Positions 2,079-51,694 of a stretch of 64,000 nt of DNA are shown one piece after another. The DNA lies in the NCBI GenBank assembly GCA_021731695.1, contig JAKFWZ010000078.1, positions 25,073-89,072 of the forward strand. Reading direction: 5' to 3'. Under the pieces are notes generated by a model, which saw only the letters and a list, made by a program, of their open reading frames with translations, did not search any database and was not told where the DNA came from. This DNA comes from Candidatus Daviesbacteria bacterium (lineage in GTDB: Bacteria; Patescibacteriota; Microgenomatia; Daviesbacterales; UBA10151). Every line of letters begins with the position of its first letter. Position 1 is the stretch's first letter. A program made the position numbers and the translations under genes.

Positions 2079-2128
2079 TCGTTAATCGTTAATCGTTAAT
2101 CGTTAATCGTTAATCGTTAATCGTTAAT
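2059..2128. repeat. Tandem heptamer (CGTTAAT) x10 with stop codons in all six frames, between convergent genes
   Basis: Ten perfect 7-nt units. TAA occurs in every + and - frame. The tract lies between the stops of the Nudix gene and mvaD. Confidence 0.9.
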
Positions 2129-2133
2129 CAGTT

Positions 2134-4082: not shown

Positions 4083-4996
4083 ATTGTGATTGAATAATAA
4101 TCGTATTTGTTTTTCTTTGCAAATTCTACTATGGTATTTGGATCTTCGTGAAAGGCTAAAATCATTCCCGAACCTTCTTTGATTCCACCAGCGCCAGATA
4201 TTTTTCCTGCTCCGCCTAGCGTTTCGATATTGTGAATAATCTGTTTAGCGGCCTCACCAACAACTCCAAGTTTTTCCAGATTTCTTTCAGCTTTTTTTAT
4301 TATTTTAATAAACTTCTCCTGATCTCCCTTTTTTAAAACTTTTGCCATTCGAGTTGCTAATGCTCCCTGGGATTGAAAAATACCAATTATTTCTGATTGC
4401 GACCTTGCATAATTATCTTTGACTAATTGAAGCATTTCAGCTGTTGTCTCAGCTGGTTTTCCTGAATTAATCAAAACCAGATTCGCTATCTCTTCCGGGA
4501 TTTTAAATCCAAGCGGTTTAATTTTATTTGTGGTCTTACCCTTTCTGAATAGAATAATTCCTGATTGTAAAACTGCGGCCAAATCTCCACCAGACGGATT
4601 GCCGTGAAATATTTTTTCTCCCTCGATAGCGATGTCAAAAATATCTTTTTCTGTATAATCAATTTTTAAAAACTTTAGTAAACAAATTGCAAAAGCTGAA
4701 GAAAGCGAGGCGGAAGTTCCGAGACCGGAGCCGACTGGTATTTGTGTTTTATCTATTTCTATTTTATACATGGGAATTTCCACCCCAAATTTTTCTTTGA
4801 TCTTTTTCTCAATAGAATTTTGCAATCTATAAATTGCATCATCATAATGAACAATCCCTAAAATTTCTTTAGTCTTTGATTTAGTTATTTTTGCTGAAAG
4901 ATATAAATTAACCGAAGCTAAAATTGCTGGTTTTCCGTATACAACACTATGCTCACCGATCAAATGAATTTTCCCTGGGATTGATATTTTAATCAT
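4079..4996 (-). CDS. mvk: Mevalonate kinase
   Basis: Motifs IPGKIHLIGEHSVVYG and PVGSGLGTSAS. The start was moved to the ATG at 4994-4996. The 5185 start in the ORF track is a TTG extension through a GC-rich structured element. Confidence 0.65.
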   Translation of the reverse strand: MIKISIPGKIHLIGEHSVVYGKPAILASVNLYLSAKITKSKTKEILGIVHYDDAIYRLQNSIEKKIKEKFGVEIPMYKIEIDKTQIPVGSGLGTSASLSSAFAICLLKFLKIDYTEKDIFDIAIEGEKIFHGNPSGGDLAAVLQSGIILFRKGKTTNKIKPLGFKIPEEIANLVLINSGKPAETTAEMLQLVKDNYARSQSEIIGIFQSQGALATRMAKVLKKGDQEKFIKIIKKAERNLEKLGVVGEAAKQIIHNIETLGGAGKISGAGGIKEGSGMILAFHEDPNTIVEFAKKNKYDYYSITI

Positions 4997-11995: not shown

Positions 11996-12535
11996 CTAAG
12001 GCTGCTTTGCTGATTTTGAGGATTCGCTTGCTCCCATTTCAGCGGGTCTGAACAAAGCTGCTGACCCGGAGGCGGTTGGGATAGGAGGCGGGGCCTTGTA
12101 TGGGACATTGTATATAATTGAAGATATCGTAAACTTATCCTCAACCATATCTAGGTTTACTGTAAGTTGTGTATTTAAATCAATTGACTCTGGGTCAACG
12201 TCTGGGATTTGTTGGTTATCTGAAGTAGTTTTATTTATATAAAATGTTTTGCCTGTTTCAAATGCTCCTTCAGTGCCGTTTTGGTTTTTGACAGTAATCC
12301 ATTTTCCGTCAACTTTTACAACTTTTCCTTCAATCGCGGCCGATTGTCTGGAAAAAACAGGTTTAGCTTTTAGGTTTTCCGGAGTCAATTTATTAGAACC
12401 TAAATTCATCCCCAAAATAAGACCAAAAATAATTCCTACAATTAACCCAAGTAAAATTTTCGCAATTTGAAAGCTTTTGCTCGATGGAATTTTTTGATTT
12501 ATATTAGGTTGGACATAAGGGCTTTCCGAATTCAT
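11996..12535 (-). CDS. Hypothetical N-terminally anchored protein
   Basis: One TM helix (ILLGLIVGIIFGLILG) followed by a soluble domain. Confidence 0.4.
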   Translation of the reverse strand: MNSESPYVQPNINQKIPSSKSFQIAKILLGLIVGIIFGLILGMNLGSNKLTPENLKAKPVFSRQSAAIEGKVVKVDGKWITVKNQNGTEGAFETGKTFYINKTTSDNQQIPDVDPESIDLNTQLTVNLDMVEDKFTISSIIYNVPYKAPPPIPTASGSAALFRPAEMGASESSKSAKQP

Positions 12536-14019
12536 ATTTTTTTCTCAAGCGCCTCGATCCGAGCTTTTAGCCTGTCGTTTTCAAGTTTAAGCTCTTGGAT
12601 TGCCTTTGTCGTGTATGGAATTACATCTCTATAATCCATAGAATAATATCCGCTGCCCTCCATATGTACACTTCCTGGCAGGATTGGCAAAGCATCCTGG
12701 GCAATAAATCCGCTGGCATTCTTTCTGCCGTCCAGATAATCAAATGTAGCGGGTTTTAGTTGGGCAACTATTTCAAGGCCGCTATTGTCACCTTCCAGAT
12801 AGCGGATATTTTCTTTTAACCTTTTGTCTGAGCCGCAATTCCCCATACTGCCTGAATTTGTGAAACATTGAGGATTGGAACCTGGTGCGTTCATAGCCGG
12901 ATCTTTGAAATCTCCAGTACCTCCAGCTAATATAATACTTCCGACTACAGAGAGTTTTTCAGAGGGATTTGTATCTCCAATCCCTACATTACCCAGTACA
13001 TCATTTAATACAATATTCCTCCAGGCAACACCAGGTTCGTGGTATCTAATGGCAAAATAGGGGGGCACAGGCGACGACGGGGTCACTGCAAACATCTCCA
13101 GCCCTTTTGTATTATTAATAGCAGGGGTTCCTAAAAAGATATTCCCTATTCCGGCACCCGGGTTGATCCTGGCGCTGCCGCAGACCATAAACGTAGCCCC
13201 GCCTCCCAGAGCTCCTCCACACCCCGCTCCTGATGGAGATCCGGAGTCGAATCCGTGCTGCATATACACAGGTTTATTGAATGCACGTACCCAACTAGAA
13301 TCCGTCATCCACCAGCCACCTGCATAAGTTTCGTTATACCAGCCAGCAGCCCCATAACTTCTATGCCAGCCTCCTCCCTGATCGATCACAGTTCCCGCAC
13401 TCATTGTTAAAGCTCCCTGAATAAGTGCATTTCCATTTACATCCAATGGCTGACTGGGGTTTATAGTTCCTATACCGACCCTTTTAGTAGTTGGATCAAC
13501 ATATAAAGTTTCTCCGGCCCTGATTTTTCCGATATTCGTACCCGGATCACCAGGAAAGTTTAAGTAGAGTTCTCCTTGGGCATTAATTACAAGATGAGTA
13601 TTCGTTCCTCTAATATAGTTAGTAGTAGTTGAAAATCCGTTATCAGTGCGTATTTGTAAGAGATTTTGGAGACCAGTCAAGTTAAGTTGTTCAACTGATA
13701 GGGTTTTGAGGACTGAGTTGGCACTGGGATCAAGATTATATGCAGCATTATTTAAATCTATCAGACTGCGGATTCCGGCTGCTCCGCCTGGGGTCAGTTG
13801 AAGGCTCTGCCCACTGGTTGCACCATTCCCCTGAAGGTAAAAATTTAAATTGGGAGGACTCGCAGTATCTCTGCTGGTTACCCAGTCTTGATTGTTGGTC
13901 TGAGCGAAACTCACGCTGCTTAAGCTCAAGACCGCTGCAAATCCCAGAAACAAAATTGAAAAAAAAGCATACATGATTTTAAATGGAAATTTTATATCTA
14001 TAGTTTCGAATTTATACAT
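12532..14019 (-). CDS. Tailspike/fibre-like surface protein with C-terminal S74 intramolecular-chaperone (auto-cleaving) domain
   Basis: Signal/anchor at the N-terminus and a Gly/Asn-rich beta-rich body. The C-terminus reads GSDKRLKENIRYLE...GFIAQDALPILP...AIQELKLENDRLKARIEALEKKI. Confidence 0.6.
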   Translation of the reverse strand: MYKFETIDIKFPFKIMYAFFSILFLGFAAVLSLSSVSFAQTNNQDWVTSRDTASPPNLNFYLQGNGATSGQSLQLTPGGAAGIRSLIDLNNAAYNLDPSANSVLKTLSVEQLNLTGLQNLLQIRTDNGFSTTTNYIRGTNTHLVINAQGELYLNFPGDPGTNIGKIRAGETLYVDPTTKRVGIGTINPSQPLDVNGNALIQGALTMSAGTVIDQGGGWHRSYGAAGWYNETYAGGWWMTDSSWVRAFNKPVYMQHGFDSGSPSGAGCGGALGGGATFMVCGSARINPGAGIGNIFLGTPAINNTKGLEMFAVTPSSPVPPYFAIRYHEPGVAWRNIVLNDVLGNVGIGDTNPSEKLSVVGSIILAGGTGDFKDPAMNAPGSNPQCFTNSGSMGNCGSDKRLKENIRYLEGDNSGLEIVAQLKPATFDYLDGRKNASGFIAQDALPILPGSVHMEGSGYYSMDYRDVIPYTTKAIQELKLENDRLKARIEALEKKI

Positions 14020-15149: not shown

Positions 15150-18100
15150 TTAAGGTATATTAATAAATTCATTGGTGTGGACATCGCCTCCGGTTGTTTT
15201 AAGGAAAGGCTTCTTAAGCTTAATAAAAAAGTTTCTGGTTGTAAATTGAGTCTTTAAAGGGTGTACTGAGGTCAGATTTGTAAGAAGTTGATTAACTTCA
15301 GCGCCGGATAGTGCTTTGTTATACAATCTAAATTCATCAATTCTTCCGTTAAAGTAACCATTAAAACCATTTCCCAAGTAAACCGTTGCTGCATTAGCCT
15401 GAACCGCAACGCCGCCAGTATAAGTACCTACTAAAGCTCCATTAAGATAAAACGACCAGGTGCTTGAATTTGATAAGGTGACTGCTACATGATTCCATGT
15501 ATTCAGGGGAAAGGCAGTGGTTGCCCTGTAATTACCATCAACATAAAACCTCAAGCTATTATTTGCATTTTGCACCAGTATAAATGGACCGCCCGAAGTT
15601 AGAGAATTAGCCCACTGGAAAATCCCCTTCGTGCCTGATTCTGAAGGTGCATTAAACCAGAAAGATACAGTTGTATTGCTCAGTGAAGTCCCGGAAATAT
15701 TAGCAGAAACATAATCATTCGCTCCATCAAAATTCCCGGCATTGGCAAACCTACCTGTTGTGACAGTATTAGCTCCATTAGCAGCAGTGCCATGATTAGC
15801 ATTAGGTCCCGAATCCTTAACCTCACCAGCAGTTCCGTTCCAGCTGCCCTCATTCATACTCCAGTGAACCATCAGGGGATCAGGAGTGGTATTAATTGTA
15901 GAAGTTTTAAGTACATTAATCTCTGATCCCGTAAGTAATTTGTTATATATTCTGACATCATCAAGTCTTCCCCTGAAAAAGCCGTTGTTAAATTGTTTAC
16001 CAATCTGGGCTGTATCCCCGGGAATGTGAGTAATATTTGCAGTTCCGGTATTCTGGACGCTGCTCAAATTCCCGTCAACGTAAAATGACACTGTTCCTGC
16101 GGCTCTATTCCAAACACCGGCCAGGTGGTACCACTGGTTTAAGTTTAAGGAAGTGGTATCCGTATACCATCCCCTTACGCCGCCGTCGTTATAGGCATAG
16201 GCCAATTTTTGGTCTGAGCTTCCGGTGCCTGAACTTAAAATACCCCATTCATAACCGGCATTGCTTATATTGCTGGATCTGGCAAATATTATTCTGACAC
16301 CGGTGTTATAGTGAGCCGTTAAATAAACCCAGGTTGATAAGGTATGATTCTGAACTTGAAGCGAAGGGCCAGTTCCAAGAGAGATAATATCATTGCTCCC
16401 GTCAAAACTGCCCGCCCGGCCAAATTTACCTGCAGATATGGTTGTAACCCCTCCCTGAGCTGTTCCGTGATTATTATTTGCAGTTGAATCGGGAACTTGT
16501 GGAGCGGTTCCAGTCCAATTAGCTTCATCAAGCGCCCAATAACCTGCGAGTCCGGTAGTTATATCAACGGGTGTGCCTGGAATTGTTGAAATAACATCTC
16601 CGATATTATTATTTGTGCATGTTAGTGTGTATAAAGCACTGTTAGCCGGGGGGTTAACGAATTGCTGGGACAGTATTGAACCAGTCAAGGATGGATTTAC
16701 GCTTAGGTTATTCCAGTTGGGGTCTGGACCGGGAGCAGTAGGATTATTTGTAATAGCAGATGTCCCGGTGCAAACATCAGCATGAGATACGTTCCAGGTG
16801 AGATTAACTTTATTACCGGAATCTACATCGGGAAGAAATGAAAGTTCATCCCTGCCATCAACCAAAAGAGAGACGTTGGGTTTATTGCAGTCTTTTATTA
16901 AGGTAGGGGTGGCGGTATTAGACATCCTGGATGCGCCGCTGAAATCGTTGATTGCTTCAACAGAGTATTCAATATTGTGAGTTAAGTCTAAAGGGTCAAG
17001 AGGGAAGGATGGATTGTAAGTATCATCAAAATAATCATAAGTTCCGCCTGCGAACGGGAGAATATTTGAATTTATATCTACGGGGGCAGAGTCCAATCCT
17101 ATTCTCTTTCTGCTGATAACATATCGGGTTGCGTTAGCGGAATTAGAAAGAGTTGTTTTCATTAAAGGCGAAGTTCCTGAGCATGAACCGACAGGGCCCG
17201 AGAGAGTAAAAGGACTTGGAGCCGCGCATTCAATGGTTAGAACGGTTCTAGTTATGGGAGCTGACCAAACGCCACTTACCCGACGCCTTAGGCTATAGGT
17301 GTAGGATTGTCCGCCTGTATTTACGACACTTGGAGTTGTTTGAGTCATGGACAAGTTAGGTCCTGTATAGATTGGACTGGCAATATCACTTCTTGATAAT
17401 TCATATTCTGTAGCTCCCGTTACCGGATCCCATGCCAGTGTAATTTGGCCATTTTCAGTATTGGGTTGGCATCCAGGCGCTGCCACGAAAGCAGTTGAGG
17501 AACTATTGGGGTTAAGTCCAAATCTGACTCTGGTATCTATGTCTAAAGCAAAATATACTCCTTGAGGCGTGGTTCTGTGAAACCCCGTCGCTGCATCGTC
17601 GTGGACCACCAAATAATATCCCCCGGGTACATTGCTGAACCTATATGTTGGCGGTTCACCCGGATTTTGTGGAACTGTTGTTTGCTGTGCGTAAAAAGTA
17701 TATCCGCCGCTAGCTTGTCTCGCCCAAAGGCTTATGCTCTGATTATCTAAAGATACCTCAGTATCCTGATAAAAAGCATCCCCGTTAGGAGGGGGGATAT
17801 CATCTATATAGACCCTGCCGAATACTTCATAGGTAGAGGTTGGATTTGTCGGGGTTATAACCGGATCGTCGACGTATACATATATAGTGTCATTACTTGG
17901 GTCATCATCACTATTTGCAGACCCTCCGGTACCCGACGTTCGTCCATCCTTGTCTCCATTCCCTCCGTAACTATTATCAGCTTCATTAATATCCCCCCCA
18001 TCACCAACATCCTCTTGTACGCCCGAAGGAGAGTCATCTCCTCCATATTGAGCATAAACTTCTTGTACAACGCGTAAATAATCAAATATGGGTATATGAT

Positions 18101-18176
18101 TAAATATAAAAAAACCAACAAAAACTAATGAAGTTGTGATGAAAAATGTGTTGAACAAATGACTTATTTTTTGCAT
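15150..18176 (-). CDS. Giant surface protein with three LamG/concanavalin-like domains
   Basis: N-terminal TM helix. A LamG-like unit (NNHGTA..G...F.G..D....SL..WV......W.HLA.V.....G...FYVDG) recurs three times. Confidence 0.6.
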   Translation of the reverse strand: MQKISHLFNTFFITTSLVFVGFFIFNHIPIFDYLRVVQEVYAQYGGDDSPSGVQEDVGDGGDINEADNSYGGNGDKDGRTSGTGGSANSDDDPSNDTIYVYVDDPVITPTNPTSTYEVFGRVYIDDIPPPNGDAFYQDTEVSLDNQSISLWARQASGGYTFYAQQTTVPQNPGEPPTYRFSNVPGGYYLVVHDDAATGFHRTTPQGVYFALDIDTRVRFGLNPNSSSTAFVAAPGCQPNTENGQITLAWDPVTGATEYELSRSDIASPIYTGPNLSMTQTTPSVVNTGGQSYTYSLRRRVSGVWSAPITRTVLTIECAAPSPFTLSGPVGSCSGTSPLMKTTLSNSANATRYVISRKRIGLDSAPVDINSNILPFAGGTYDYFDDTYNPSFPLDPLDLTHNIEYSVEAINDFSGASRMSNTATPTLIKDCNKPNVSLLVDGRDELSFLPDVDSGNKVNLTWNVSHADVCTGTSAITNNPTAPGPDPNWNNLSVNPSLTGSILSQQFVNPPANSALYTLTCTNNNIGDVISTIPGTPVDITTGLAGYWALDEANWTGTAPQVPDSTANNNHGTAQGGVTTISAGKFGRAGSFDGSNDIISLGTGPSLQVQNHTLSTWVYLTAHYNTGVRIIFARSSNISNAGYEWGILSSGTGSSDQKLAYAYNDGGVRGWYTDTTSLNLNQWYHLAGVWNRAAGTVSFYVDGNLSSVQNTGTANITHIPGDTAQIGKQFNNGFFRGRLDDVRIYNKLLTGSEINVLKTSTINTTPDPLMVHWSMNEGSWNGTAGEVKDSGPNANHGTAANGANTVTTGRFANAGNFDGANDYVSANISGTSLSNTTVSFWFNAPSESGTKGIFQWANSLTSGGPFILVQNANNSLRFYVDGNYRATTAFPLNTWNHVAVTLSNSSTWSFYLNGALVGTYTGGVAVQANAATVYLGNGFNGYFNGRIDEFRLYNKALSGAEVNQLLTNLTSVHPLKTQFTTRNFFIKLKKPFLKTTGGDVHTNEFINIP

Positions 18177-23149: not shown

Positions 23150-23759
23150 TATTTCCATAAGTTTTTTGCTACTAATTTTTCTGATTCCCCTCTGGCTGAT
23201 TTTATTTCTAGTTTTAAAAATTTTTTCACCAGGACCCTTCATCTTTACTCAGCTGCGAATGGGCAAAAATAGCAAGCCCTTTAAAATTTATAAAATCAGG
23301 ACCATGATAAGGGACGCTGAGGAAAAAAAGAAGTCACTCCTGAAATTTAATGAAGTCCAAGCACCAGTTTTTAAAATTAAGAACGATCCAAGGTTCATTA
23401 AATTTGGCAAAGTCTTATCCAGTACCGGCCTTGATGAGTCTATTCAAGTATTGAATGTTTTAAAAGGGGAGATGTCCTTAGTTGGTCCTCGACCATTGCC
23501 TATTAGTGAAGCCAAAAAACTGCCTATTAAATATAAAAAACGCTTTTCCTCACTCCCAGGAATTACCTCAGAATGGGTGATTGAAGGGGCTCACCATATG
23601 AGCTTAAAGCAATGGATGAATTTAGATTTAGAATATGTTAAAAAGGGAAATATCTTTTTTGATTGTTACATTTTATTTGCAACTCTTGAAATAATCTCAA
23701 AAAAACTTATAAACTATGGAAAAGAAATTAATAAAAAACCCAGTCCCCCTAAAGATTAA
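23121..23759 (+). CDS. Undecaprenyl-phosphate sugar phosphotransferase (bacterial sugar transferase)
   Basis: Motifs RVFDISISFLLL and LNVLKGEMSLVGPRP. Confidence 0.8.
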   Translation: MIIIMKRVFDISISFLLLIFLIPLWLILFLVLKIFSPGPFIFTQLRMGKNSKPFKIYKIRTMIRDAEEKKKSLLKFNEVQAPVFKIKNDPRFIKFGKVLSSTGLDESIQVLNVLKGEMSLVGPRPLPISEAKKLPIKYKKRFSSLPGITSEWVIEGAHHMSLKQWMNLDLEYVKKGNIFFDCYILFATLEIISKKLINYGKEINKKPSPPKD

Positions 23760-25746
23760 AAACATTATTTTTATTATTGCTGACACCTTAAGGTTTAAAA
23801 GCACTGGCCTTAGTGGTCTCAACCCATCGCCAACCCCGTTTATAGATTATTTAGCCAGCATGGGTATCAATTTTACTAATGCTTATGCATCCATCACCTG
23901 CACAGATCCTTCTATCACATCTTTGATGAGTGGGAAATATCCCTTATCAATTGGTCTTGTAAACCATGCTAGATTTGTCACGGAAGAAGAAAAAAGCAAT
24001 ATTCATAATTTAGTTTTACTCCCAGAAATATTGAGTAAAAATGGATTTAAAACCATAGCTATAGATTGGGTAGGAAGATGGCATAAAAAAGGTTATCAAT
24101 TCTACTCAAATGGATTAAGCAGTTCTACAAGAAGCGACTTTATTATGGATAAAATTCCCTCACTAGCTATTTTAATGAGAAGTTTTGATAAAATTTCTCT
24201 GAGAACTTTAAACAGAGAATTTTTCATCAACGGTTATTATGCTTTTTACCCAAATCCCAAAATACCGTATGATCCCGCTGATAGAGTAGTTGATGAAGCT
24301 ATTATTAAGTTAAAAAAAAATGAAAAACAAAAAAAATTTATTTATCTTCACCTTTGGGATGCACATTGGCCACACACAAGGTCAACAGGATTGAGCTCTT
24401 ATTTAAAAAACTCTATTGAAGATACATATTTAGCTGAAGTTAGTTTTCTAGATCAGCAATTAGCTCGGCTATTCGCTTATCTAAAACAGTCTGATAAGTT
24501 GAGTGAAACTTTAATAATTTTTACAGCCGACCATGGAGAGAATTTTTACGAACATGATAACCCCCTAACTCATCAAAATTTATATGAGGATGTTGTAAAA
24601 ATTCCTTTAATTCTCTATCATCCCAATCTCAAGCAAAAAAAAACTTCTTCTTTAGTCCAACATACCGATATTTTCCCCACAATACTTGAATTTCTAAAGA
24701 TAAAGTTTAATCAAAAAATTGATGGAGTCAGTCTATTACCACTAATCAATTCCACCAAACAAAGTATTCATAAAGTCGTTTTTTTTGAAGATATAGTTTA
24801 TAGAAGAATAAAATTTAGCAATTTTGTTAAAAGAAGAAGGGGATTAAGAAACAAAAAATATAAATACATCGCCACCTATAAAGGCTCGGAAAAAGAGATA
24901 TATAAAATTAACCTCAGGGAAGACCAGAAAATTTATTCTGAAGAACTTTATGATCTGAGTAAAGATCCTTTAGAGCAATTAAATATAGCAAATATTAAGC
25001 CCAACATAATTAAATCATTAAGAAAAGATTTAACAAAAACTGTACTCCACCAAAATTTTAATAGAATAATAAATGATCCTCTAATCGGTTCAAAAGTTAA
25101 GAATTCAGTTTCAATTCTTAAACAGGCATTTAGAAAATATCCAAGCAAAAAACTAATCATAGCCTGGAAAGGAGGTAAAGATACCACAGTTATGATGCAT
25201 ATTATTCGTTGCATCTTTAAAGAGGAAATACCTATCAGGGTTTTTTTTAATGATACAACTTTGGAGTTTAAGGAGACGTATCAATTTATTGAAAAAATAA
25301 AAAAACTATGGAACCTTAATTTAGTAGTAATCAAACACGATAAAAAAGAACTTTTAGAGTACTACAAAACTAAAGATTTAAATAAAAAGAAAGAACTTTC
25401 CAGAATAATGAAAATTACAGTAATAAATAAAGCTCTTGAAAAATACAAATTAAAAGGTTTCTTGCTTGGGATAAGGAAAGATGAAAATCCAGCTAGGAAA
25501 AACGAAAAATACTTTTCAAAAAGAAAAAACCATATTAGAATCCATCCCTTACTTGATTGGACTGAATCAGACATCTGGTACTACACCCAAAATATGGGAG
25601 TCCCATACTCGGTACTTTATGATCAAGGATATCGTTCAGTTGGAGAACAACCCTTTACTTCTAAATCTTACTCAAATGAAAGATCTGGAAGAGAGCAAGA
25701 AAAAGAAGCATCAATGGGAAGACTCAGAAAACTCGGGTATTGGTAA
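23716..25746 (+). CDS. Fusion protein: sulfatase-family domain (degenerate FGly signature) plus PAPS-reductase/PP-loop domain
   Basis: N-terminal half has CTDPSITSLMSGKYP (sulfatase signature with R changed to I) and TADHGE. C-terminal half has IAWKGGKDTTVMMH, a PP-loop of the PAPS reductase family. Confidence 0.55.
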   Translation: MEKKLIKNPVPLKIKNIIFIIADTLRFKSTGLSGLNPSPTPFIDYLASMGINFTNAYASITCTDPSITSLMSGKYPLSIGLVNHARFVTEEEKSNIHNLVLLPEILSKNGFKTIAIDWVGRWHKKGYQFYSNGLSSSTRSDFIMDKIPSLAILMRSFDKISLRTLNREFFINGYYAFYPNPKIPYDPADRVVDEAIIKLKKNEKQKKFIYLHLWDAHWPHTRSTGLSSYLKNSIEDTYLAEVSFLDQQLARLFAYLKQSDKLSETLIIFTADHGENFYEHDNPLTHQNLYEDVVKIPLILYHPNLKQKKTSSLVQHTDIFPTILEFLKIKFNQKIDGVSLLPLINSTKQSIHKVVFFEDIVYRRIKFSNFVKRRRGLRNKKYKYIATYKGSEKEIYKINLREDQKIYSEELYDLSKDPLEQLNIANIKPNIIKSLRKDLTKTVLHQNFNRIINDPLIGSKVKNSVSILKQAFRKYPSKKLIIAWKGGKDTTVMMHIIRCIFKEEIPIRVFFNDTTLEFKETYQFIEKIKKLWNLNLVVIKHDKKELLEYYKTKDLNKKKELSRIMKITVINKALEKYKLKGFLLGIRKDENPARKNEKYFSKRKNHIRIHPLLDWTESDIWYYTQNMGVPYSVLYDQGYRSVGEQPFTSKSYSNERSGREQEKEASMGRLRKLGYW

Positions 25747-42292: not shown

Positions 42293-43327
42293 CTAAGCCG
42301 CTTTTTCATATAACTTGGCGACATTTCTAGCTTCATCTATTGTTACAAACGATAAGGCATTCAATGCCGGGAACACTGAGTCACGGCCAATTCGATCTCT
42401 CTCAAACGCGCCTATCTTTACCAAATTTCTGAGAGACCTTATAGGGTTTTCCAGGAGAGTTTGTGCGGGCATCTCAAAATTGGTACTGACATAAAAGACA
42501 TCTTGTCTTGTGCCCTCAGGATCTATCTTATACTCTTCTTCCAAAAGCCTTCTAAAAACTCCGTGGTGGTAATTTTCATCCCGTCCTATTAAGTCAAAAA
42601 TAGCAGCTACTGTAAGTGCACCTTCTCTTAAAGCAGCCTCTTTAATCCTTTCATAATTATTAGCTGTCACTTTTTCTTGAATATTCGCATAAGCTGCAAT
42701 TTGCCGTCTCGTTTTAAAAGGAGGAACCCATGTGTGAGCTAAATTTTTATAATACTCTGCTTCAATTTGCTCGAGAGTCTTAAAAGAATTTTTATCGGGA
42801 GCTTGCTCTTGAGAGTCTGCGTTTACTCCTAGGGGTCTTTTAACACTTGTTAGAATTAAGCCGAATGCATTACCATGTTGATTTTCTTCTGTATCCCACA
42901 TGCCATATACATCGTTATATCCCCAAACTGTTTGAGAAAATTCTTTAGCCCATCTCATGTAAAAGGGTAGCTTATCTTCAACCATTTTTACATCTACAAT
43001 AACTCCCGCGAGAGGTTCAGAAATAGTTTCGTTTGCTAGATTGTCTGTAATTATGATTCTTGACCGAAGATCAGCTTTTCCTTTTTCACCGGGGATACGT
43101 TCTACTTCTCCATCCTTAAGTGGTCTATCTATAGTAATTACTCCATTGCGATAAACCCAAGGCAGGGGTCGTTTTAGTTTGGTGTTAAAAAGTCTATGTG
43201 TTTCAATACCCAGTGCTCGTTCTTGGTGGGTTATAACTAAAGTTTCAGAAGTGTGATCATATCCAGGTCCCAATTCTTTATATTTAAGCATTGGGTTATC
43301 TGCGTGTCTTTCCAGTTGAGTCATAGT
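42293..43327 (-). CDS. Acyl-ACP desaturase-like di-iron protein
   Basis: Motifs EENQHGNAFG and GRDENYHHGVF. The start was trimmed to Met58 so the gene does not run through tRNA-Ile. Confidence 0.65.
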   Translation of the reverse strand, partial: TMTQLERHADNPMLKYKELGPGYDHTSETLVITHQERALGIETHRLFNTKLKRPLPWVYRNGVITIDRPLKDGEVERIPGEKGKADLRSRIIITDNLANETISEPLAGVIVDVKMVEDKLPFYMRWAKEFSQTVWGYNDVYGMWDTEENQHGNAFGLILTSVKRPLGVNADSQEQAPDKNSFKTLEQIEAEYYKNLAHTWVPPFKTRRQIAAYANIQEKVTANNYERIKEAALREGALTVAAIFDLIGRDENYHHGVFRRLLEEEYKIDPEGTRQDVFYVSTNFEMPAQTLLENPIRSLRNLVKIGAFERDRIGRDSVFPALNALSFVTIDEARNVAKLYEKAA

Positions 43328-43435
43328 TAAGGGTATTACTAAAGTAGCCTGGCGTTGTAAACATTTAGTAAACCTAAAGTAGAATCCTAGCTTCGGGCAT
43401 GTTAAAATACCTAGGTTTGGAATGAAAATTTTTTT

Positions 43436-43507
43436 GGGCGCGTAGCTCAGCGGTAGAGCGCGTCTCTGATAAAGACGAGGCCCTTGGTTCGACACCAAGC
43501 GCGCCCA
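43436..43507 (+). tRNA. tRNA-Ile (GAU)
   Basis: GGGCGCGTAGCTCAGCGGTAGAGCG, anticodon loop cTGATAa and T-arm GGTTCGA. Confidence 0.85.
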
Positions 43508-43627
43508 CCCCTAAAATTAATTCCTTGCAATTTCAACCGAAATTGTAAAAACGCAACGCTAGGGGTTCGACACAATCACCGCCCACATTGATACTTTTTG
43601 GTTTCTTCTGTTTAAATTTTCCAAAAA

Positions 43628-44071
43628 TTATGGGCTAGAGGAGGGCGCTGCTGATGCTTCTGGACTTGAAGATGCAGTGGGCGATTCAGCAGGGGATGAG
43701 CTTGGTGAGGATGTTGCAGATGCAGAGGGACTTGGGGTAGGCGTAGGAGTTGAGATTGTTGATGCAGATGGGGAAGGTAAAGCACTTGCCGAAGGAGAAG
43801 GGGTTGCGCTTGGTTTTACAGAAGGCTTTGGTGTGGCTTTAACTGCTGGTTTTATTGAAGCTTTAGCTGAAGCGGACGGACTTGGTGAGGGTTCTGGAGT
43901 GGGTGTAGCGGTCGCAGAAGGTGATGGACTGGATGTTTCCCCTAATACTTCAGGCGAAGGGAAAAAGGTATTTTTAACGAATATTCCACCACCTACGAGC
44001 ATTAGTACTAAAAAAGAAGCTAGCCCTACTGTAAGTTTTGAGGGCTTATTCGCAAAGAGTCTTTGGAACAT
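43628..44071 (-). CDS. Anchored Ser/Pro/Thr/Ala-rich low-complexity protein
   Basis: TM helix followed by (SPSPSASA)-type repeats. Confidence 0.4.
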   Translation of the reverse strand: MFQRLFANKPSKLTVGLASFLVLMLVGGGIFVKNTFFPSPEVLGETSSPSPSATATPTPEPSPSPSASAKASIKPAVKATPKPSVKPSATPSPSASALPSPSASTISTPTPTPSPSASATSSPSSSPAESPTASSSPEASAAPSSSP

Positions 44072-45786: not shown

Positions 45787-46782
45787 ATGCAGGTTGTTGC
45801 CCCGGAATTAATCCAAAACAAGCGCGTACTTCTTCGTTTAGATCTTGATGTTCCTTTAAAAGAAGTTAATGGTGTTATGACTATCGAAGATGATACCCGG
45901 CTGATGGCTGGTATGGAAACTCTCGGTCTTTGTTTAGAATTTGCTTCATCTGTAACTATCTGTGGCCATCTAGGACGGCCTAATCCGCCGGCTGGCGGAG
46001 AAGATCCAAAATTATCAGTTAAACCAATCGTCGATTGGCTTGAGGAAGGATACGGTCATATTCAGCTTCCTGTCGGAAAATTACATATATTGGAGAATTT
46101 AAGATTTGAACCGGGCGAAGATTCCTCGGATCCTGAATTTGCAAAAGAGTTAGCTTCGCATGGTGACTTTTATATATATGAAGCTTTTGCAACTCATCGG
46201 CCTTCAGCTTCCACGACAGTAGTCCCAACACTTTTACCTCATGCAGCAGGTTTGCGGTTTACCAGGGAGGTGGACGAACTGAAACAGGTTAGAGAAAATC
46301 CAATCAGACCTCAAGTTGTAATTTTGGGAGGAGCGAAAGTTGAGGATAAAATGCCGGTTATAAAAGCCATGGCTTCTAAAGCAGATGTGGTTTTAGTCGG
46401 CGGAAAATTAGCCAAAGAAATTAAAGAGCAGGGAATTGAAAACCTTGGAGCAAATGTGATGGTAGGGAAGCTAACTGAGGATGGGTTTGATATTTCGGAC
46501 GAAACAGCAAGTGCATGGGCAAATCTTTTAAAAACAGCAAAAGAAGTCGTCTGGAATGGACCTTTAGGAAAATTTGAAGATGATAAATATTCCAACACTA
46601 AAAAAGTTGCTCAAGCGATTATTGATTCCGGAGCGAAAAGTATAATCGGCGGAGGAGATACTATTTCTGCTGTTACAAAATATGGAATGATTGAAAAATT
46701 TACATTTGTCTCAACCGGTGGCGGGGCAATGCTTAACTTTTTAGCTGATGGTACACTTCCGACTATCGAAGCGCTAAAATAG
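45787..46782 (+). CDS. pgk: Phosphoglycerate kinase (short form)
   Basis: Motifs RVLLRLDLDVPL, LENLRFEPGE and GGGAMLNFL. Confidence 0.8.
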   Translation: MQVVAPELIQNKRVLLRLDLDVPLKEVNGVMTIEDDTRLMAGMETLGLCLEFASSVTICGHLGRPNPPAGGEDPKLSVKPIVDWLEEGYGHIQLPVGKLHILENLRFEPGEDSSDPEFAKELASHGDFYIYEAFATHRPSASTTVVPTLLPHAAGLRFTREVDELKQVRENPIRPQVVILGGAKVEDKMPVIKAMASKADVVLVGGKLAKEIKEQGIENLGANVMVGKLTEDGFDISDETASAWANLLKTAKEVVWNGPLGKFEDDKYSNTKKVAQAIIDSGAKSIIGGGDTISAVTKYGMIEKFTFVSTGGGAMLNFLADGTLPTIEALK

Positions 46783-46844: not shown

Positions 46845-49079
46845 ATGTGGAATGAGTTAATGGGGGATGAAACTCCTAAAAACAGACACAAACTTTATAT
46901 AAAAATTGGTATTTTGGCAATTCTGCTAGTACTAATTCCGTTGGGTGTTTACTTAGTAAGGCAAACTCAAATTTTTAGACCCAAAGCTGTTGATGAGCAA
47001 ATAAACCCGGAAACTAGTTTTAGTCTTGAAGGACCTTTAGAGCAAGTTATATGTGTTAGGGCTCCCTGTCCGCCGGTGCCTGTTTCTACTTTAAATATAG
47101 GTTCAGAATTCGAGGTTAATGTTTTGGTAAGGTCTGATTTTGATTCAGCAAATGTCTTTAAAGCGAATGTTAATTTTCCAAAAGACCTTTTAGAAGTAAT
47201 AGCCATTGACACTCCCATAATAACAAACCCTCCGATTTGTGGAGGGATTGCCGGTTTAAGCTGTCCTAGCGGTTACTATTGCCGTATGAGCGAGCCTGCA
47301 AATATGCCGGACCAATCAGGTGTATGTTTGCCTGAAGATCAAATCACCTGTAATACCAGTGCCCGGGAATCAGGTTGTCCGAGAGGTTACAGTTGCGAAC
47401 AATACTGTCCTCCAGGCTCTGGAGACTGCTCTTTAACTGCAGGAGTATGTAAGGCAATTTCTTCAGAACCTCAAGCTTGTGGCGGGTATCCAGATGAAAA
47501 CGGAAATTCTCCAACCTGTCCTCAGGGTTATACATGTGATTATTCGGGAAATGACGAGCAGGTTGCTGATCAGATGGGAGTCTGTATTCCGTCGGATACA
47601 GCGCCCAAGTCCTGTTCAGGTCCCACCGATAATTCCTGTCCCGCAAATTACACCTGTTATCAGGATTGCGGGCCGCCTGTTGTCCGAGGAGGTGATCCGG
47701 AACCAGGCTATACCTGTTTAAGCCAGGCTCAAATAGCTTCGCGCGAAGTTAGTGGGTGCCCCATATGTCTTTCTTCATCAACGAAAATCTCCACGCCAAA
47801 AGGTTCTGTTTATGTCTCGGAGCTAAAGGAAGGAATGGAAGTTTATTCTCAAGATAAATCTGGAAAGCAAACAATTGCTAAAATCTTAAAAACCTCATCA
47901 GTTAAAGCACCTCTAACTCATAAAGTGGTACATCTGTCATTAAAAGATGGCAGAAATGCATATATATCCCCAAATCACCCAACCATAAGCGGTGTAACCG
48001 TTGGAGAACTAAAAGCAGGTGATAGCTATGACGGTTCTGTTGTAAAAAGCGCAGAACTTGTGCCCTACACCAGAGGTAGAACTTATGATCTTCTCCCCGA
48101 GGGAGAAACAGGTTTCTATTACGCGGACGGGGTTTTAATGGCCTCAACCCTAAAAGGCTCGGTTAAAGGACTCACAGCCAATGCTCAAAATACAGAGAGC
48201 TCGTGCCGGGAAGACGCTCAATGTGCAGAAGGTTTTTACTGTAAGAGCAGGACGCGCTGCCGAACCCTTCCTGATGGGACAGCCCAGTGTACAAATGTAA
48301 TTGGTGGTGATTGTTATCCTAAACCCAGTGAGGGGGAGTGTGCTCAGGTTATCACTAGGGCCTGTTCCAATACAGCCCCCCAGGTTTGCAGGGATTTTCC
48401 AACGCCTTGTGATGTTCCGGATGGTTGGGTAGTTCCGGGATTAAACTCTAGAAATTCCAACTACTTCATAGTAGATTGGGTTCAAAAGTCCTTTGATAAT
48501 GGTGCTGGGACGATCACTTTAAACGGGAAAAGCCAGGGAACTAAAACCAACCTTACACCTCTCACTATGGTCACTATTAAATTTAAGGCTAAAAAAGCTG
48601 GTACGGGGACAATCTCATTTGGGGACTCCACACAAATACTAAGGCTTTCAGATTCACAAAACATACTCCAGACTAAGAGAAACTTGGAGTTCACAGTTGC
48701 CGGAGCAACGCCTTCAGCTTCTGTTATAGGTGATCCTTGTGGGCCTGGTGGGATAGCCCCTTGTCCTTCCGCATCGGCTTCACCTTTGGCAGGCACTTGT
48801 CATACCACACCAGATTGTTCAGCTAATCAATATTGTCAATACGTTGAGGCGGAATGTTCGGTGGGAAATTGTCCCCGATACGGATACTGCGTGGCAAATA
48901 ATGGAGGCAAGGGCGATGCCAACAATGACGGATTTATTGATCTGGCTGATTTATCGATTCTTTATTCCAGCTTTCTTAAGAATGTAGCAAAACTTGACTT
49001 TAATAATGACAATAAAATTAACAGTATTGATTTTGGGTACATGATTTTACTTCTGCGTTCACTGCGCGTTATTAATTAA
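46845..49079 (+). CDS. Cys-rich surface protein with Hint (bacterial intein-like) domain, cohesin-like modules and C-terminal dockerin-like motif
   Basis: Hint module CPICLSSSTKISTPKGSVYV..LKEGMEVYS...SPNHP...TYDLLPE..GFYYADGVLMAS. C-terminus DANNDGFIDLADL...DFNNDNKINSIDF. Confidence 0.6.
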   Translation: MWNELMGDETPKNRHKLYIKIGILAILLVLIPLGVYLVRQTQIFRPKAVDEQINPETSFSLEGPLEQVICVRAPCPPVPVSTLNIGSEFEVNVLVRSDFDSANVFKANVNFPKDLLEVIAIDTPIITNPPICGGIAGLSCPSGYYCRMSEPANMPDQSGVCLPEDQITCNTSARESGCPRGYSCEQYCPPGSGDCSLTAGVCKAISSEPQACGGYPDENGNSPTCPQGYTCDYSGNDEQVADQMGVCIPSDTAPKSCSGPTDNSCPANYTCYQDCGPPVVRGGDPEPGYTCLSQAQIASREVSGCPICLSSSTKISTPKGSVYVSELKEGMEVYSQDKSGKQTIAKILKTSSVKAPLTHKVVHLSLKDGRNAYISPNHPTISGVTVGELKAGDSYDGSVVKSAELVPYTRGRTYDLLPEGETGFYYADGVLMASTLKGSVKGLTANAQNTESSCREDAQCAEGFYCKSRTRCRTLPDGTAQCTNVIGGDCYPKPSEGECAQVITRACSNTAPQVCRDFPTPCDVPDGWVVPGLNSRNSNYFIVDWVQKSFDNGAGTITLNGKSQGTKTNLTPLTMVTIKFKAKKAGTGTISFGDSTQILRLSDSQNILQTKRNLEFTVAGATPSASVIGDPCGPGGIAPCPSASASPLAGTCHTTPDCSANQYCQYVEAECSVGNCPRYGYCVANNGGKGDANNDGFIDLADLSILYSSFLKNVAKLDFNNDNKINSIDFGYMILLLRSLRVIN

Positions 49080-49104: not shown

Positions 49105-50298
49105 ATGGATCAAAATACCCAGCAATTACCTCATCTTGTAGTCGAAGACGAACACAAAAGAAGTCCCTGGGCGATTGTCGGAATTGTGACCTTGTCGATT
49201 ACACTTCTCGCGATACCTTTAGGCATTTACTTAGTTGGACAGCGAACTCAGCTTGCTCCGCAAGCTGCAGTAGCAACACCTGCGCCCGAAGCGCCAACCT
49301 CGATTTTTTTAGAATCAAGACTTTCACCTGATTCGGGCGGAGGAGTAATTCCAGTTGACGTCTTTATCAAGTCAACTCAGGATCCACTTAATCTCGCAAA
49401 TGTAAAATTTAAATTTGATCCCTCGTTTTTATCAGTTGATAATATTGCAACTGGTGCTGCTGAACCGGGAAAAAATCAGATTTTTACTAAATGGTTAGAA
49501 GCTTCATCGAATGATGAAAAAGGGGAGATTTCGATTATTGCAGGAGTGCCAAATCCGGGTATTTTATCTTCAGATGTGCCTGAGGGAAAAGTTTATCTTG
49601 CTACATTGAATCTAAGACCAAAAAAATCAGGGACTGCAGTTTTACAAATTGGCAGTAATTCCGAGCTCTTAAGAAATTCAGATAACCAAAATATTTTTCA
49701 GTCAGCTACGGATTTAGTTCTAAATTTACCGAATCAGGTCCCCTCAGCGACTCCTGTGCCTTCTGCAAAATCCCAAAACAATCAGCCATTAATTGTGATC
49801 ACAAATCCGGTAACGGCGGCTAATTATTCCTATTTCACCCCACTAGATATTATCTGGAGCTCATTCAATGTCGAGATTATTTCGCAGATAAATCTTCTCG
49901 TTAACGGTGTTTTATATGGTCCGATTGGAGAAAATGTTGATCCTGCAACAGGTAAATATACATGGAATCCGCAGGATAGTCTGTCCATTCCTTATATTCA
50001 AAGCGCGAATACTTTTTCAATTGAAATTGTCGGACTCGGAAAAGACGGAGAAACAGTCAGAGCACATACCGGACCTTTTGGATTAGTTGGTTCGGATACA
50101 GTTTCTGGTTTAGCACCAAATCTAACCCTGTTCTTACAGAATCAGCTTTCGGTCGCCGATGCCTCAAAACTTCTTGCAAACTATTTAGGTTCTCCTGTTG
50201 CTGATAAAGCTTTAGATTTTAATCGTGACGATATTATTAATGAGCTTGATTTTTATTTGTTAAAGCAAAACCTTACGGGTCGGGGGATAATTAAATAA
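49105..50298 (+). CDS. Anchored surface protein with cohesin-like domain and dockerin-like C-terminus
   Basis: TM helix. Block VIPVDVFIKSTQDPLNLANVKFKFDP. C-terminus LDFNRDDIINELDFYLL. Confidence 0.5.
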   Translation: MDQNTQQLPHLVVEDEHKRSPWAIVGIVTLSITLLAIPLGIYLVGQRTQLAPQAAVATPAPEAPTSIFLESRLSPDSGGGVIPVDVFIKSTQDPLNLANVKFKFDPSFLSVDNIATGAAEPGKNQIFTKWLEASSNDEKGEISIIAGVPNPGILSSDVPEGKVYLATLNLRPKKSGTAVLQIGSNSELLRNSDNQNIFQSATDLVLNLPNQVPSATPVPSAKSQNNQPLIVITNPVTAANYSYFTPLDIIWSSFNVEIISQINLLVNGVLYGPIGENVDPATGKYTWNPQDSLSIPYIQSANTFSIEIVGLGKDGETVRAHTGPFGLVGSDTVSGLAPNLTLFLQNQLSVADASKLLANYLGSPVADKALDFNRDDIINELDFYLLKQNLTGRGIIK

Positions 50299-50503: not shown

Positions 50504-51694
50504 ATGATAAAAGTTGCGATTAATGGATTCGGAAGAATTGGGAGAAATGCCTTCAAAGTAGCAGTTGAGTACCACACAGATGCTTTAGAGATAGTAGCTA
50601 TTAACGACCTCTCAAAACCTGAAGTTCTGGCCCATCTTTTGAAATACGACACATCCTATGGAATATGGAATAAAAAAATTGGATTTGATGAGACCAATCT
50701 TATTATTGATGGAAAACCTTACCCTGTTGTAGGTGAAAAAGAACCGGCTAACTTACCCTGGAAAAGGTACGAAATAGATGTGGTTATCGAATCAACCGGC
50801 AGATTTACCGACGCGGAAGGAATGAGGCAGCATTTGTCAGCCGGTGCAAAAGCGGTTGTTTTATCGGCTCCGGCAAAAGGCGATGGGGTTCAAACATTTT
50901 TGATTGGTGTAAATCATGGCCAGTATAAAGGCGAACAGCTGATTAATAACGCTTCGTGTACAACAAATTGTATTGCGCCTGTTGCGGCAATTCTTGAGGG
51001 AAAATTTGGAATCCTAAAAGCCTTGATGACAACAGTTCATTCCGTTACCGCGGAGCAAAATTTAGTTGACGGGCCGCCTCCAGGAGGTAAATCAGGGGAT
51101 TTAAGACGTGCCAGATCAGGGTTTATGAATATGATTCCGACGACAACAGGCGCAGCGATCGCCACAACCGAAGTTATGCCTCAGCTAAAAGGACTTTTCG
51201 ATGGACGTTCAATCAGAGTTCCCACCTTAGTGGGATCCATTACTGACTTTACTCTTTTGCTTAAATCCAAGACAACGGTTGAGGAAGTGAATGAAACATT
51301 TAAACAGGCAGCTGCGTCAGAGCAGTGGAAGGGAATTGTAGCGGTAACTGAGGAGCCCTTAGTCTCGTCGGACATTATCGGTAGGAGTGAGTCTTCAATT
51401 GTTGATCTTGGCTTAACTCAATTGATTGATGGCGATTTTCTTAAAGTTTTTGCCTGGTATGATAACGAATGGGGTTATTCCAATCGCTTAGTAGAGCAGG
51501 TGATTAATGTAGGAAATAATCTTCCGTCTGTTGTGATTCCCGGACCTGAGCATGCTGAAGCTGCATCTCCTGTATCTGAGCCTGAGCAAGCTGAAACTGC
51601 AGAAAAAGAGCCTGAAGCTCCGAAGGATGAGCTAAAAGAATATGATGTGAATCCAGTTGTTCACAAAGCTGAGGATTTAGAAAAAACTTCCTAA
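50504..51694 (+). CDS. gap: Glyceraldehyde-3-phosphate dehydrogenase with an acidic C-terminal extension of about 60 aa
   Basis: Motifs KVAINGFGRIGRN and SCTTNCIAP. The tail reads PEHAEAASPVSEPEQAETAEKEPEAPKDE. Confidence 0.9.
   Translation: MIKVAINGFGRIGRNAFKVAVEYHTDALEIVAINDLSKPEVLAHLLKYDTSYGIWNKKIGFDETNLIIDGKPYPVVGEKEPANLPWKRYEIDVVIESTGRFTDAEGMRQHLSAGAKAVVLSAPAKGDGVQTFLIGVNHGQYKGEQLINNASCTTNCIAPVAAILEGKFGILKALMTTVHSVTAEQNLVDGPPPGGKSGDLRRARSGFMNMIPTTTGAAIATTEVMPQLKGLFDGRSIRVPTLVGSITDFTLLLKSKTTVEEVNETFKQAAASEQWKGIVAVTEEPLVSSDIIGRSESSIVDLGLTQLIDGDFLKVFAWYDNEWGYSNRLVEQVINVGNNLPSVVIPGPEHAEAASPVSEPEQAETAEKEPEAPKDELKEYDVNPVVHKAEDLEKTS

Follow-up and report, generated by a model that had tools for sequence, protein, structure and literature searches.

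A predicted self-cleaving Hint domain nested in a loop of a split cohesin fold in a surface protein of a Daviesbacteria-like bacterium

What would an intein-like domain do inside a surface protein built from cohesin and dockerin modules? This question is raised by an open reading frame (ORF) at positions 46845..49079, forward strand, of a 64,000-nucleotide stretch of a Candidatus Daviesbacteria contig (GenBank assembly GCA_021731695.1, contig JAKFWZ010000078.1), which we refer to as the window. The frame is uninterrupted and encodes a protein of 744 amino acids (aa). The host is an uncultured Daviesbacteria-like bacterium of the candidate phyla radiation (CPR)/Patescibacteria, of the Microgenomates type, and the product is a membrane-anchored, Cys-rich cohesin/Hint/dockerin surface protein. 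A first-pass annotation had placed the Hint domain in this protein and predicted autoproteolysis or ligation of a surface scaffold. We propose that a cassette consisting of a Cys-rich module and a Hint domain sits in a loop of the cohesin-like fold, and that it would cleave the chain at the N-terminal edge of the Hint domain without splicing. Based on sequence and on analogy with known systems, we give this proposal a probability of roughly 0.6.

Is the Hint domain real? As judged from sequence matches and a predicted structure, residues 308-437 are a genuine Hint (Hedgehog/intein) domain. The motifs by which the domain had been recognized are all present in the translation, as C308-LSSSTKISTPKG, S375-PNHP, T413-YDL and F424-YYADGVL. 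Pfam Hint_2 (PF13403) matches the 744-aa protein with an expectation (E) value of 1.8e-4 and a score of 22.3 bits, compared with a gathering cutoff of 28.4 bits. Three orthologues exceed that cutoff (P0004 with 39.2 bits, P0002 with 36.4 and P0005 with 35.4), and Hint_2 is the best Pfam match in 113 of 126 relatives, at E <= 1e-3. The profile is matched only over its first half (positions 1-47 to 1-85 of 147). NCBIfam intein_Nterm also matches the protein (E 0.011), and a single-sequence phmmer search against the PDB returned the Cat consensus intein (E 0.011) and the Pab PolC intein (E 0.049). A profile of 20 sequences (A1) matched the Cat intein (E 8.9e-7), the full length of the gp41-1 intein (E 4e-4) and a bacterial intein-like (BIL) domain of C. 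thermocellum (E 0.029). Two alignments were discarded, one as too noisy (A2) and the other because MAFFT had scattered the cohesin fragment rows (A3), and an alignment of collinear orthologues and Hint segments (A4) was used in their place. An AlphaFold model of residues 256-445 has a predicted local distance difference test score (pLDDT) of 85. Foldseek matched this model to inteins, BIL domains and Hedgehog, with E values of 4e-8 to 1e-6 for the inteins and BIL domains; the top values were E 3.7e-8 for gp41-1 and a template modelling (TM) score of 0.79 for 2lwy. No second Hint copy was found in the window by tblastn; a weak match at 15720-15962 (E 0.36), inside a lectin-domain protein at 15150-18176, is noise.

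We next consider whether the domain retains the residues of an active Hint. An exhaustive HMMER search returned at least 1,371 representatives of 50%-identity clusters at E <= 1e-3 (1,107 at E <= 1e-10), from which 164 relatives were drawn and aligned for conservation counts. The predicted nucleophile, Cys308 (block A residue 1, in 'CLSSSTKISTPKG'), is Cys in 163 of these 164. In block B ('SPNHP'), which aligns with the TxxH of inteins and Hedgehog and carries Ser in place of the usual Thr of Thr-x-x-His, Ser375 and His378 are each found in all 164. The same is true for Thr413 and Asp415 of block F, while Tyr414 between them is Tyr in 158 relatives and Phe in 6; the block F sequence 'TYDLL' aligns with the 'YDLL' found in the Cat intein. 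Conservation in the family extends to the hydrophobic part of block G ('TGFYxANGIL'). The register of the domain's end was taken from an ungapped extension of the gp41-1 alignment, which sets 'ANDIL-T-H-N|S' against 'ADGVL-M-A-S|T'. It places Ser434 (Ser in 162 of 163 relatives) at the position of the intein terminal Asn, Thr435 (Thr in 163 of 163) at the +1 position, and Ala433 at that of the penultimate His, where Gly, Lys or Ala occurs across the family.

Judged by these residues, nothing needed for the N-to-S acyl shift has been lost, and the 744-aa protein would most likely undergo autocleavage between Ile307 and Cys308, outside the cell. Because the terminal Asn is replaced (Ala433-Ser434), no succinimide formation, splicing or classical C-terminal cleavage would be expected, and because the Hint module comes last in about 150 of the 164 relatives, these offer no C-extein to ligate. 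The first-pass annotation was thus right to name a Hint/BIL domain, which is borne out by the Pfam, NCBIfam, profile and Foldseek matches, the 20-sequence profile finding both inteins and a BIL domain. Its prediction of autoproteolysis is well founded, given the near-invariant Cys308, block B Ser-x-x-His and block F Asp. Of the catalytic residues that it asked to have checked, the nucleophile is in place and the terminal His-Asn is not, and ligation, which it also put forward, is unlikely as a splicing-type reaction, with Ala433-Ser434 at the His-Asn positions and most relatives ending at the Hint domain.

Where in the protein is this domain located? Pfam Cohesin (PF00963) does not match the native 744-aa sequence, and neither flank of the insertion matches alone. 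When residues 129-535 were removed in silico, so that residues 51-128 were joined to 536-625, a Cohesin match bridged the two joined parts (E 7.6e-4, positions 9-112 of the 139 in the profile), with a score of 20.1 bits that is under the gathering threshold of 24.1. The joined halves also align continuously with the uninterrupted cohesin-like domain encoded by the downstream ORF, 49105-50298 (E 6e-12). Residues ~55-125 and ~538-620 are therefore one cohesin fold, split by a loop insertion of ~400 aa. The order of domains is anchor, N-terminal cohesin half, loop insertion, C-terminal cohesin half, Cys-rich linker and dockerin, and within the loop insertion three Cys repeats are followed by the Cys module, the Hint domain and further Cys modules. 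The content of the protein had been described correctly as Hint plus cohesin-like, but the placement of Hint between beta-domains was wrong, as it lies in a loop of a single cohesin. The dockerin-like calcium-binding pair reported at the C-terminus was recovered by Pfam as Dockerin_1 (PF00404; residues 689-732, E 3.9e-6, 27.4 bits against a gathering score of 22.9), with both calcium-loop-like repeats recognizable (Table 1).

The internal position of Hint is an exception in its family. In about 150 of the 164 relatives the Hint match reaches the last residue of the protein or stops no more than 3 residues short of it, with the ending '...S-T-L-K', and we set the boundaries of the domain by the 150 relatives that end at the residue aligned with Lys437. 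Only four proteins, the 744-aa protein and the orthologues nearest to it (P0002, P0003 and P0004), carry the domain internally. The family signature is C-P-I-C-L ... S-P-x-H-P ... T-Y-D ... S-T-L-K. A hydrophobic N-terminus is present in 124 of 155 relatives, and the middle parts are diverse and mostly unannotated, with Gmad2, PKD and metallopeptidase domains among them and a dockerin in 7 of 126; many relatives consist of an anchor, a Cys-rich stalk and Hint only. The layout at the level of the family is that of Hedgehog, a secreted cargo followed by a terminal Hint domain.

A scan of one genome per species confirmed 140 loci, of which 80 are listed by taxon. These 80 comprise 45 loci in CPR/Patescibacteria lineages, 13 in Chloroflexota, 7 in Nitrosopumilaceae/Nitrosotalea/Nitrosarchaeum (including the complete Ca. 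Nitrosotalea devanaterra genome), 6 labelled 'Uncultured Gammaproteobacteria', which are short contigs of metagenome-assembled genomes with the CPR-type module, 3 in Actinobacteria, 3 from an unspecified 'bacterium', and 1 each in Acetothermia, Acidobacteria and Methanoperedens. Together, 80 loci (L003-L082) encode 94 Hint-family proteins, and some genomes have two or more copies close together. In the archaeal members (P0012-P0021, L037, L059 and other Nitrosopumilaceae loci), Hint is preceded not by the CPR-type Cys module but by ~50 conserved residues that are rich in beta structure, contain one Cys and follow the pattern 'LNFxDYPVA..G.PITLH.G..ASNGCTVE.TL.KI...TATFLKKE...RPCPICL'. All-against-all BLAST of 80 genomic loci revealed no recurrent neighbour gene family other than the Hint proteins themselves, which fits a self-sufficient Hint module. 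Source names, available for only a few members, read 'hypothetical protein' or referred to an unrelated domain, and we found no description of the family in the literature on Hint domains in CPR or in Thaumarchaeota/Patescibacteria, on PF13403/Hint_2, or on dockerin and cohesin in CPR; for PF13403/Hint_2, only papers on the human HINT2 gene, which is unrelated, came up. The family is thus large, apparently undescribed, and usually C-terminal.

If the Hint domain is usually terminal, how did it come to be in a loop? Comparison with close relatives shows that the cassette changes position. In the window, the gene is preceded by a phosphoglycerate kinase (PGK) gene (pgk, 45787-46782) and followed by the surface-protein gene at 49105-50298, which we call the partner gene, and then by the glyceraldehyde-3-phosphate dehydrogenase gene (gap, 50504-51694). 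Among named relatives, the PGK of the window comes closest to those of Candidatus Daviesbacteria (58-60% identity), which places the host in the CPR/Patescibacteria. The P0005 orthologue has the identical pgk ... gap context, in a genome whose PGK is 80% identical to that of the window. Its cohesin is split in the same way, by a Cys-rich, Hint-less insert that includes the 'CAQVxTRAC...TPCDVP' module, and a dockerin follows; its Cys module and Hint domain are located at the very C-terminus, after the dockerin. The window cassette (residues 257-437) and the C-terminal cassette of P0005 are 60% identical as one block; the scaffolds share only 34-41% identity, and the segments follow one another in a different, non-collinear order. 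The CAQV module lies within the cohesin loop in P0002 as well. In the closest relative found (L085, PGK 88% identical), the slot between pgk and the partner gene (1701-4339) encodes a Wzy_C protein and a split-cohesin protein, in which both cohesin halves are matched (E 1e-13 and 1e-10) and the loop is filled by ~170 unrelated, Cys-poor residues with no Hint domain. In L084 (PGK 84% identical) the slot (3085-4128) holds a different gene, whose product, of 347 aa, is secreted and has an HExxHxxGxxH metalloprotease motif. An orthologue of the partner gene is present in all 4 related loci (L001 with 36% identity, L002 with 59%, L084 and L085), always downstream of the variable slot. Between close relatives, the slot that separates pgk from the partner gene is hypervariable, and the unit of Cys module and Hint domain is a portable cassette: some pgk-gap orthologues have it in the loop, others have it at the C-terminus, and others lack it. 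In the literature, BIL domains are likewise autoprocessing modules, found where non-conserved bacterial proteins are hypervariable (PMC7765530).

The distribution of cysteines bears on where and how such a cassette could act. The 744-aa protein contains 41 Cys, of which 22 are upstream of Cys308 and 18 downstream, and Cys308 is the only one within Hint. Among 129 complete relatives, none has a further Cys inside the Hint domain, and the number of Cys upstream of the first Hint residue (Cys1) is even in 117. This number includes the Cys three residues earlier, Cys(-3), which forms part of a conserved Cys(-3)-Pro-Ile-Cys1 motif: Cys305 is Cys in 150 of 163 relatives, and C-P-[IV]-C is found in about 150 of the 163. 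The even upstream count, together with the single Hint Cys, suggests as the simplest pairing that Cys(-3) is bonded to an upstream Cys and that Cys1 is free. On the simplest reading, all cysteines except Cys308 would pair in disulfides, which fits an extracytoplasmic location.

Based on homology to inteins and Hedgehog, the following course of events can be proposed. After export, the cohesin sandwich and the disulfide-rich modules would fold outside the cell, with the N-terminal helix anchoring the protein and Cys308 left as its only unpaired cysteine. Cys308 would attack the carbonyl of Ile307 in an N-to-S acyl shift, helped by Ser375 and His378 of block B and Asp415 of block F. With Ala433-Ser434 in place of His-Asn, neither a succinimide nor splicing would follow, and the thioester would be resolved by water or another nucleophile, possibly after transfer to Thr435. 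The chain would thereby be severed between Ile307 and Cys308, giving membrane-anchored residues 1-307 and a distal fragment, residues 308-744, with Hint, the second cohesin half and the dockerin. The two fragments would be joined only through their shared cohesin beta-sandwich, a non-covalent, breakable joint resembling that of other autoproteolysed surface domains.

Several points weigh against this proposal. We infer cleavage from conserved residues only, and that the fragments would be held together by the cohesin fold is purely our inference. Block B has Ser where inteins usually carry Thr, the Hint_2 score of the window protein itself is under the gathering score, and the full-length AlphaFold model is poor overall (mean pLDDT 64). 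A beta-branched Ile before the scissile bond usually slows thioester resolution. The proposed mechanism also leaves the role of the invariant Ser434-Thr435 unexplained.

Could the domain instead be a true (mini-)intein that splices out to restore an intact cohesin? Such a reading would fit the interruption of a folded domain, the invariant Thr at +1, and the fact that inteins are the best sequence matches: class 1 mini-inteins (gp41-1, Cat consensus, NpuDnaB) match at E 9e-7 to 4e-4 and have in common with it blocks A, B and F, the hydrophobic stretch within block G and the +1 Thr. Unlike these, however, the domain has no penultimate His or terminal Asn with which to splice, and its host is not a housekeeping protein but a fast-evolving surface protein at a hypervariable locus. 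Thr435 is invariant, yet in about 150 of 164 relatives there is only T-L-K from +1 onward and hence no real C-extein, and in the window protein hundreds of Cys-rich residues flanking Hint on both sides would stay in the loop after splicing. There is no homing endonuclease, for which the 130-aa Hint domain has no room, and in place of a conserved insertion site we find a hypervariable slot in which the cassette differs in position among orthologues. We regard a true intein as barely credible and rejected it on account of the missing His-Asn, the lack of a C-extein in most relatives, and the variable host. A Hint domain that has lost its activity and persists in the loop as a structural or binding module is very improbable in our estimation. 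Its internal position is indeed rare, its Pfam score is weak, and it departs from the family consensus at two residues (Asp428 for Asn and Tyr426 for Trp). Nevertheless, the four loop-inserted versions, in this protein and three orthologues, have lost none of the family-invariant residues, all of them retaining Cys308, Ser375, His378, Thr413, Asp415, Ser434 and Thr435, which argues for continued selection on catalysis.

Two further readings accept an active domain and concern the thioester. In one, the Hint thioester is not hydrolysed and transfers the new C-terminus at Ile307 to an amine or hydroxyl, which could belong to a lipid, to a component of the cell wall or S-layer, to a different surface protein or to a host cell, so that the protein would be covalently anchored, or would adhere, by a self-catalysed and sortase-independent reaction analogous to Hedgehog cholesteroylation and to BIL2-mediated isopeptide formation. 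The Hedgehog topology that is normal for the family favours this reading, as do the relatives composed of anchor, stalk and Hint only, which would have no obvious benefit from shedding Hint if the new C-terminus then served no purpose. Members of the family also come mostly from CPR bacteria, archaea, Chloroflexota and Actinobacteria, lineages taken to have a single membrane. In addition, BIL2 of the Tetrahymena BUBL protein (6tmm, 6y75), a close structural match, uses its Hint thioester to conjugate an upstream domain to lysine through an isopeptide bond without ATP (PMC8616854). Unlike the domain studied here, BIL2 carries Asn at its end (mutated in the solved structure, N143A) and is eukaryotic and cytoplasmic, and it implies no acceptor for the 744-aa protein. 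Furthermore, most relatives have nothing after Hint that could recruit a nucleophile as the sterol-recognition region of Hedgehog does, no conserved partner gene or acceptor is visible in the 80 loci, and the default fate of such thioesters is hydrolysis. We therefore consider ligation unlikely. The other reading is a redox trap, in which a disulfide between Cys305 and Cys308 in C305-P-I-C308 locks the precursor in oxidising surroundings until reduction triggers cleavage. This would account for the retention of C-P-[IV]-C in most relatives, and it has precedents: an engineered Cys-3/Cys1 disulfide stops N-cleavage by the Ssp DnaE intein until it is reduced (Callahan 2011, reviewed in PMC3922620), and a native equivalent occurs in the Pyrococcus abyssi MoaA intein (PMC3922620). 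The trapped structure, 3nzm, is among the Foldseek matches. The cysteine counts point the other way, since the upstream parity and the lone Hint Cys indicate that Cys(-3) bonds upstream, and the module at residues 257-305 of the 744-aa protein holds exactly six Cys; a redox trap is thus decidedly improbable.

With N-terminal autocleavage as the preferred reading, we next compare the domain with known systems. B-type BIL domains have all intein motifs except the C-terminal one and undergo N-terminal cleavage (PMC7765530), and residues 308-437 show this same combination, with the Hint fold, blocks A, B and F kept, and the C-terminal His-Asn missing. Their host is likewise a variable region of a non-conserved secreted or surface protein, and N-terminal autocleavage would be expected of both. 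The C-terminal His-Asn by which A-type BIL domains are defined (PMC7765530) is lacking here, whereas the A-type BIL domain of C. thermocellum (PDB 2lwy) ends in it. Unlike B-type BIL/Hint_2 domains, the family has its own signature, C-P-I-C-L...S-T-L-K, is fixed at the extreme C-terminus, and matches only half of the Pfam profile. The range also differs, with B-type BIL domains in alpha-proteobacteria and the C-P-I-C-L family in CPR bacteria, Nitrosopumilaceae and Chloroflexota.

The Hog domain of Hedgehog (PDB 1at0) is similar in block B (TPAH vs SPNH), in having no terminal Asn, and in the order of cargo and Hint in the family. Its end, '...VAAS-CYA', resembles '...VLMAS-TLK' here by eye, without alignment by a tool. 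Because hhalign against Drosophila Hh-C (an approximate sequence) aligned only the N-terminal half including block B, with a probability of 51%, this likeness of the end motifs (AS-C vs AS-T) rests on inspection. The cleavage site is Ile-Cys-Leu here and Gly-Cys-Phe in Hedgehog, identity is ~15%, and the host is prokaryotic; no sterol-recognition region follows Hint, which in the 744-aa protein is internal and followed by Cys-rich modules. Altogether, the domain would be expected to work like a B-type BIL domain or a Hedgehog-type Hint, with N-terminal autoprocessing and no splicing.

Hint or BIL domains in combination with cohesin and/or dockerin have been annotated in clostridial cellulosomes, in ScaO of C. 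clariflavum (PMC4582956) and as a HintN in B. cellulosolvens (PMC5590126), so this combination is not new. In ScaO, however, the BIL domain is one of a string of separate modules and is not nested inside a cohesin fold, and unlike in clostridial cellulosomes, no cellulosomal enzymes are visible among the ORFs scanned in the window. What appear to be new are the distinct, large C-P-I-C-L Hint family, its nesting in a cohesin fold, and its translocation within orthologous genes.

Does the protein belong to a larger cohesin-dockerin assembly? The first-pass annotation had noted that two further genes of the window share the cohesin-like plus dockerin-like layout, and Pfam agrees. The ORF at 34135..35028 matches both Cohesin (E 2.5e-11) and Dockerin_1 (E 1.2e-10), whereas the partner gene has a weak dockerin match (E 1.5e-3) and a cohesin recognized by alignment. 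Each of the three proteins has a membrane anchor, one cohesin(-like) module and one dockerin(-like) module. Pfam identified no enzyme, carbohydrate-binding module or multiple cohesins in the three, so that the cellulosome-style assembly suggested earlier stays hypothetical. Nor were glycoside hydrolases found in Pfam scans of the neighbouring and large ORFs, which cover part of the ORFs of the window, and nothing scanned resembles an enzyme-bearing cellulosome. It is plausible that the three anchored proteins of the window could form a surface lattice, with the dockerin binding to their cohesin(-like) modules.

The coordinates of the features are collected in Table 1. The AlphaFold model of the full-length protein has a helix at residues 14-41, which overlaps the hydrophobic anchor. 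The three Cys-rich repeats at the start of the loop insertion have low pLDDT and weak matches to Lustrin_cystein and Myxo_Cys_RPT. The Cys module that accompanies Hint stops at the predicted scissile bond and is conserved in CPR-type relatives.

Table 1. Features of the 744-aa protein, its gene, and related genes, in window positions
Feature	Position	Strand	Basis
Whole gene, 744-aa membrane-anchored Cys-rich cohesin/Hint/dockerin surface protein	46845..49079	+	ORF list, translation
N-terminal hydrophobic helix, signal anchor, residues 17-38	46893..46958	+	LYIKIGILAILLVLIPLGVYLV behind a basic stretch
Cohesin-like domain, N-terminal half, residues 55-125	47007..47219	+	
Three Cys-rich repeats, residues 132-247, start of loop insertion	47238..47585	+	Cys pattern
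Cys module accompanying Hint, residues 257-307, C..C..C...CGPPV...PGYxC....C305-P-I307	47613..47765	+	
Hint autoprocessing domain (predicted), residues 308-437, Cys308 to Lys437	47766..48155	+	
Cys308 codon, predicted nucleophile, intein block A position 1	47766..47768	+	
Block B, S375-P-N-H378-P	47967..47981	+	
Block F, T413-Y-D415	48081..48089	+	
S434-T435, intein terminal Asn and +1 nucleophile positions	48144..48149	+	gp41-1 alignment register
Post-Hint Cys-rich modules, residues 454-522, including CAQVITRAC...CRDFPTPCDVP; end of loop insertion	48204..48410	+	
Cohesin-like domain, C-terminal half, residues 538-620	48456..48704	+	
Cys-rich linker, residues 632-682, 8 Cys	48738..48890	+	sequence
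Type I dockerin with a pair of Ca-loop-like repeats (DANNDGFIDLAD, DFNNDNKINSID), residues 689-732	48909..49040	+	Pfam
Conserved partner gene downstream; its 397-aa product has a membrane anchor, a cohesin-like domain without interruption, a middle domain and a dockerin-like end	49105..50298	+	
Third membrane-anchored cohesin + dockerin protein, 297 aa	34135..35028	-	Pfam

Elsewhere in the window, which has a G+C content of 39%, several other features were noticed. A 495-aa protein (12532-14019, reverse strand) combines a pilin-like Shufflon_N region (E 5e-8) with a C-terminal Peptidase_S74 (E 1.5e-11), which in endosialidase and tail-fibre proteins is a self-cleaving intramolecular chaperone; it is a second, unrelated self-cleaving C-terminal module in the window, on a likely surface fibre. 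The lectin-domain protein at 15150-18176 (reverse strand) is a large surface protein of 1008 aa with two Laminin_G_3/ConA-like lectin domains (E 7e-50). An unusual pairing is found at 23716-25746 (forward strand), where a 676-aa protein fuses a sulfatase (E 2e-47) to a PAPS-reductase domain (E 4e-42). A tRNA-Ile(GAT) at 43435-43510 (forward strand) overlaps the first ~60 nucleotides of the called ORF 42293-43498 (reverse strand), which is FA_desaturase_2-like (E 4e-11); because of this overlap, the true start of the ORF is probably further in. At 43628-44071 (reverse strand), a 147-aa protein has an N-terminal hydrophobic segment followed by a low-complexity tail of Pro, Ser, Ala and Thr, and an antisense ORF of similar length there is a by-product of the repeat composition.

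What would the finding mean for these organisms? Hint chemistry underlies inteins and Hedgehog signalling and is a workhorse of protein engineering, and the family described here occurs in groups about which little is understood: CPR/Patescibacteria, Nitrosopumilaceae and Chloroflexota. So far, nothing points to a new type of chemistry. If active, the family would be a prokaryotic Hedgehog-like C-terminal processing system and a natural, non-splicing module of 130 residues with a single Cys that works extracellularly beside disulfide-rich domains, with a possible use for protein thioesters under oxidising conditions. By analogy, the C-P-I-C-L...S-T-L-K family could go further and be the prokaryotic counterpart of Hedgehog processing, with the thioester covalently attaching the secreted protein to a lipid, an envelope polymer, a surface protein or a host cell, a speculation that we consider distinctly unlikely. 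If true, it would provide CPR epibionts, ammonia-oxidising archaea and Chloroflexota with sortase-independent, energy-free anchoring or a covalent 'harpoon' for adhesion, and in the 744-aa protein the Hint domain, placed in the cohesin loop, would serve to cross-link a surface lattice of cohesins and dockerins or to release it. A cassette that is nested in a cohesin loop and moves within a gene illustrates how surface proteins diversify in ultra-small bacteria.

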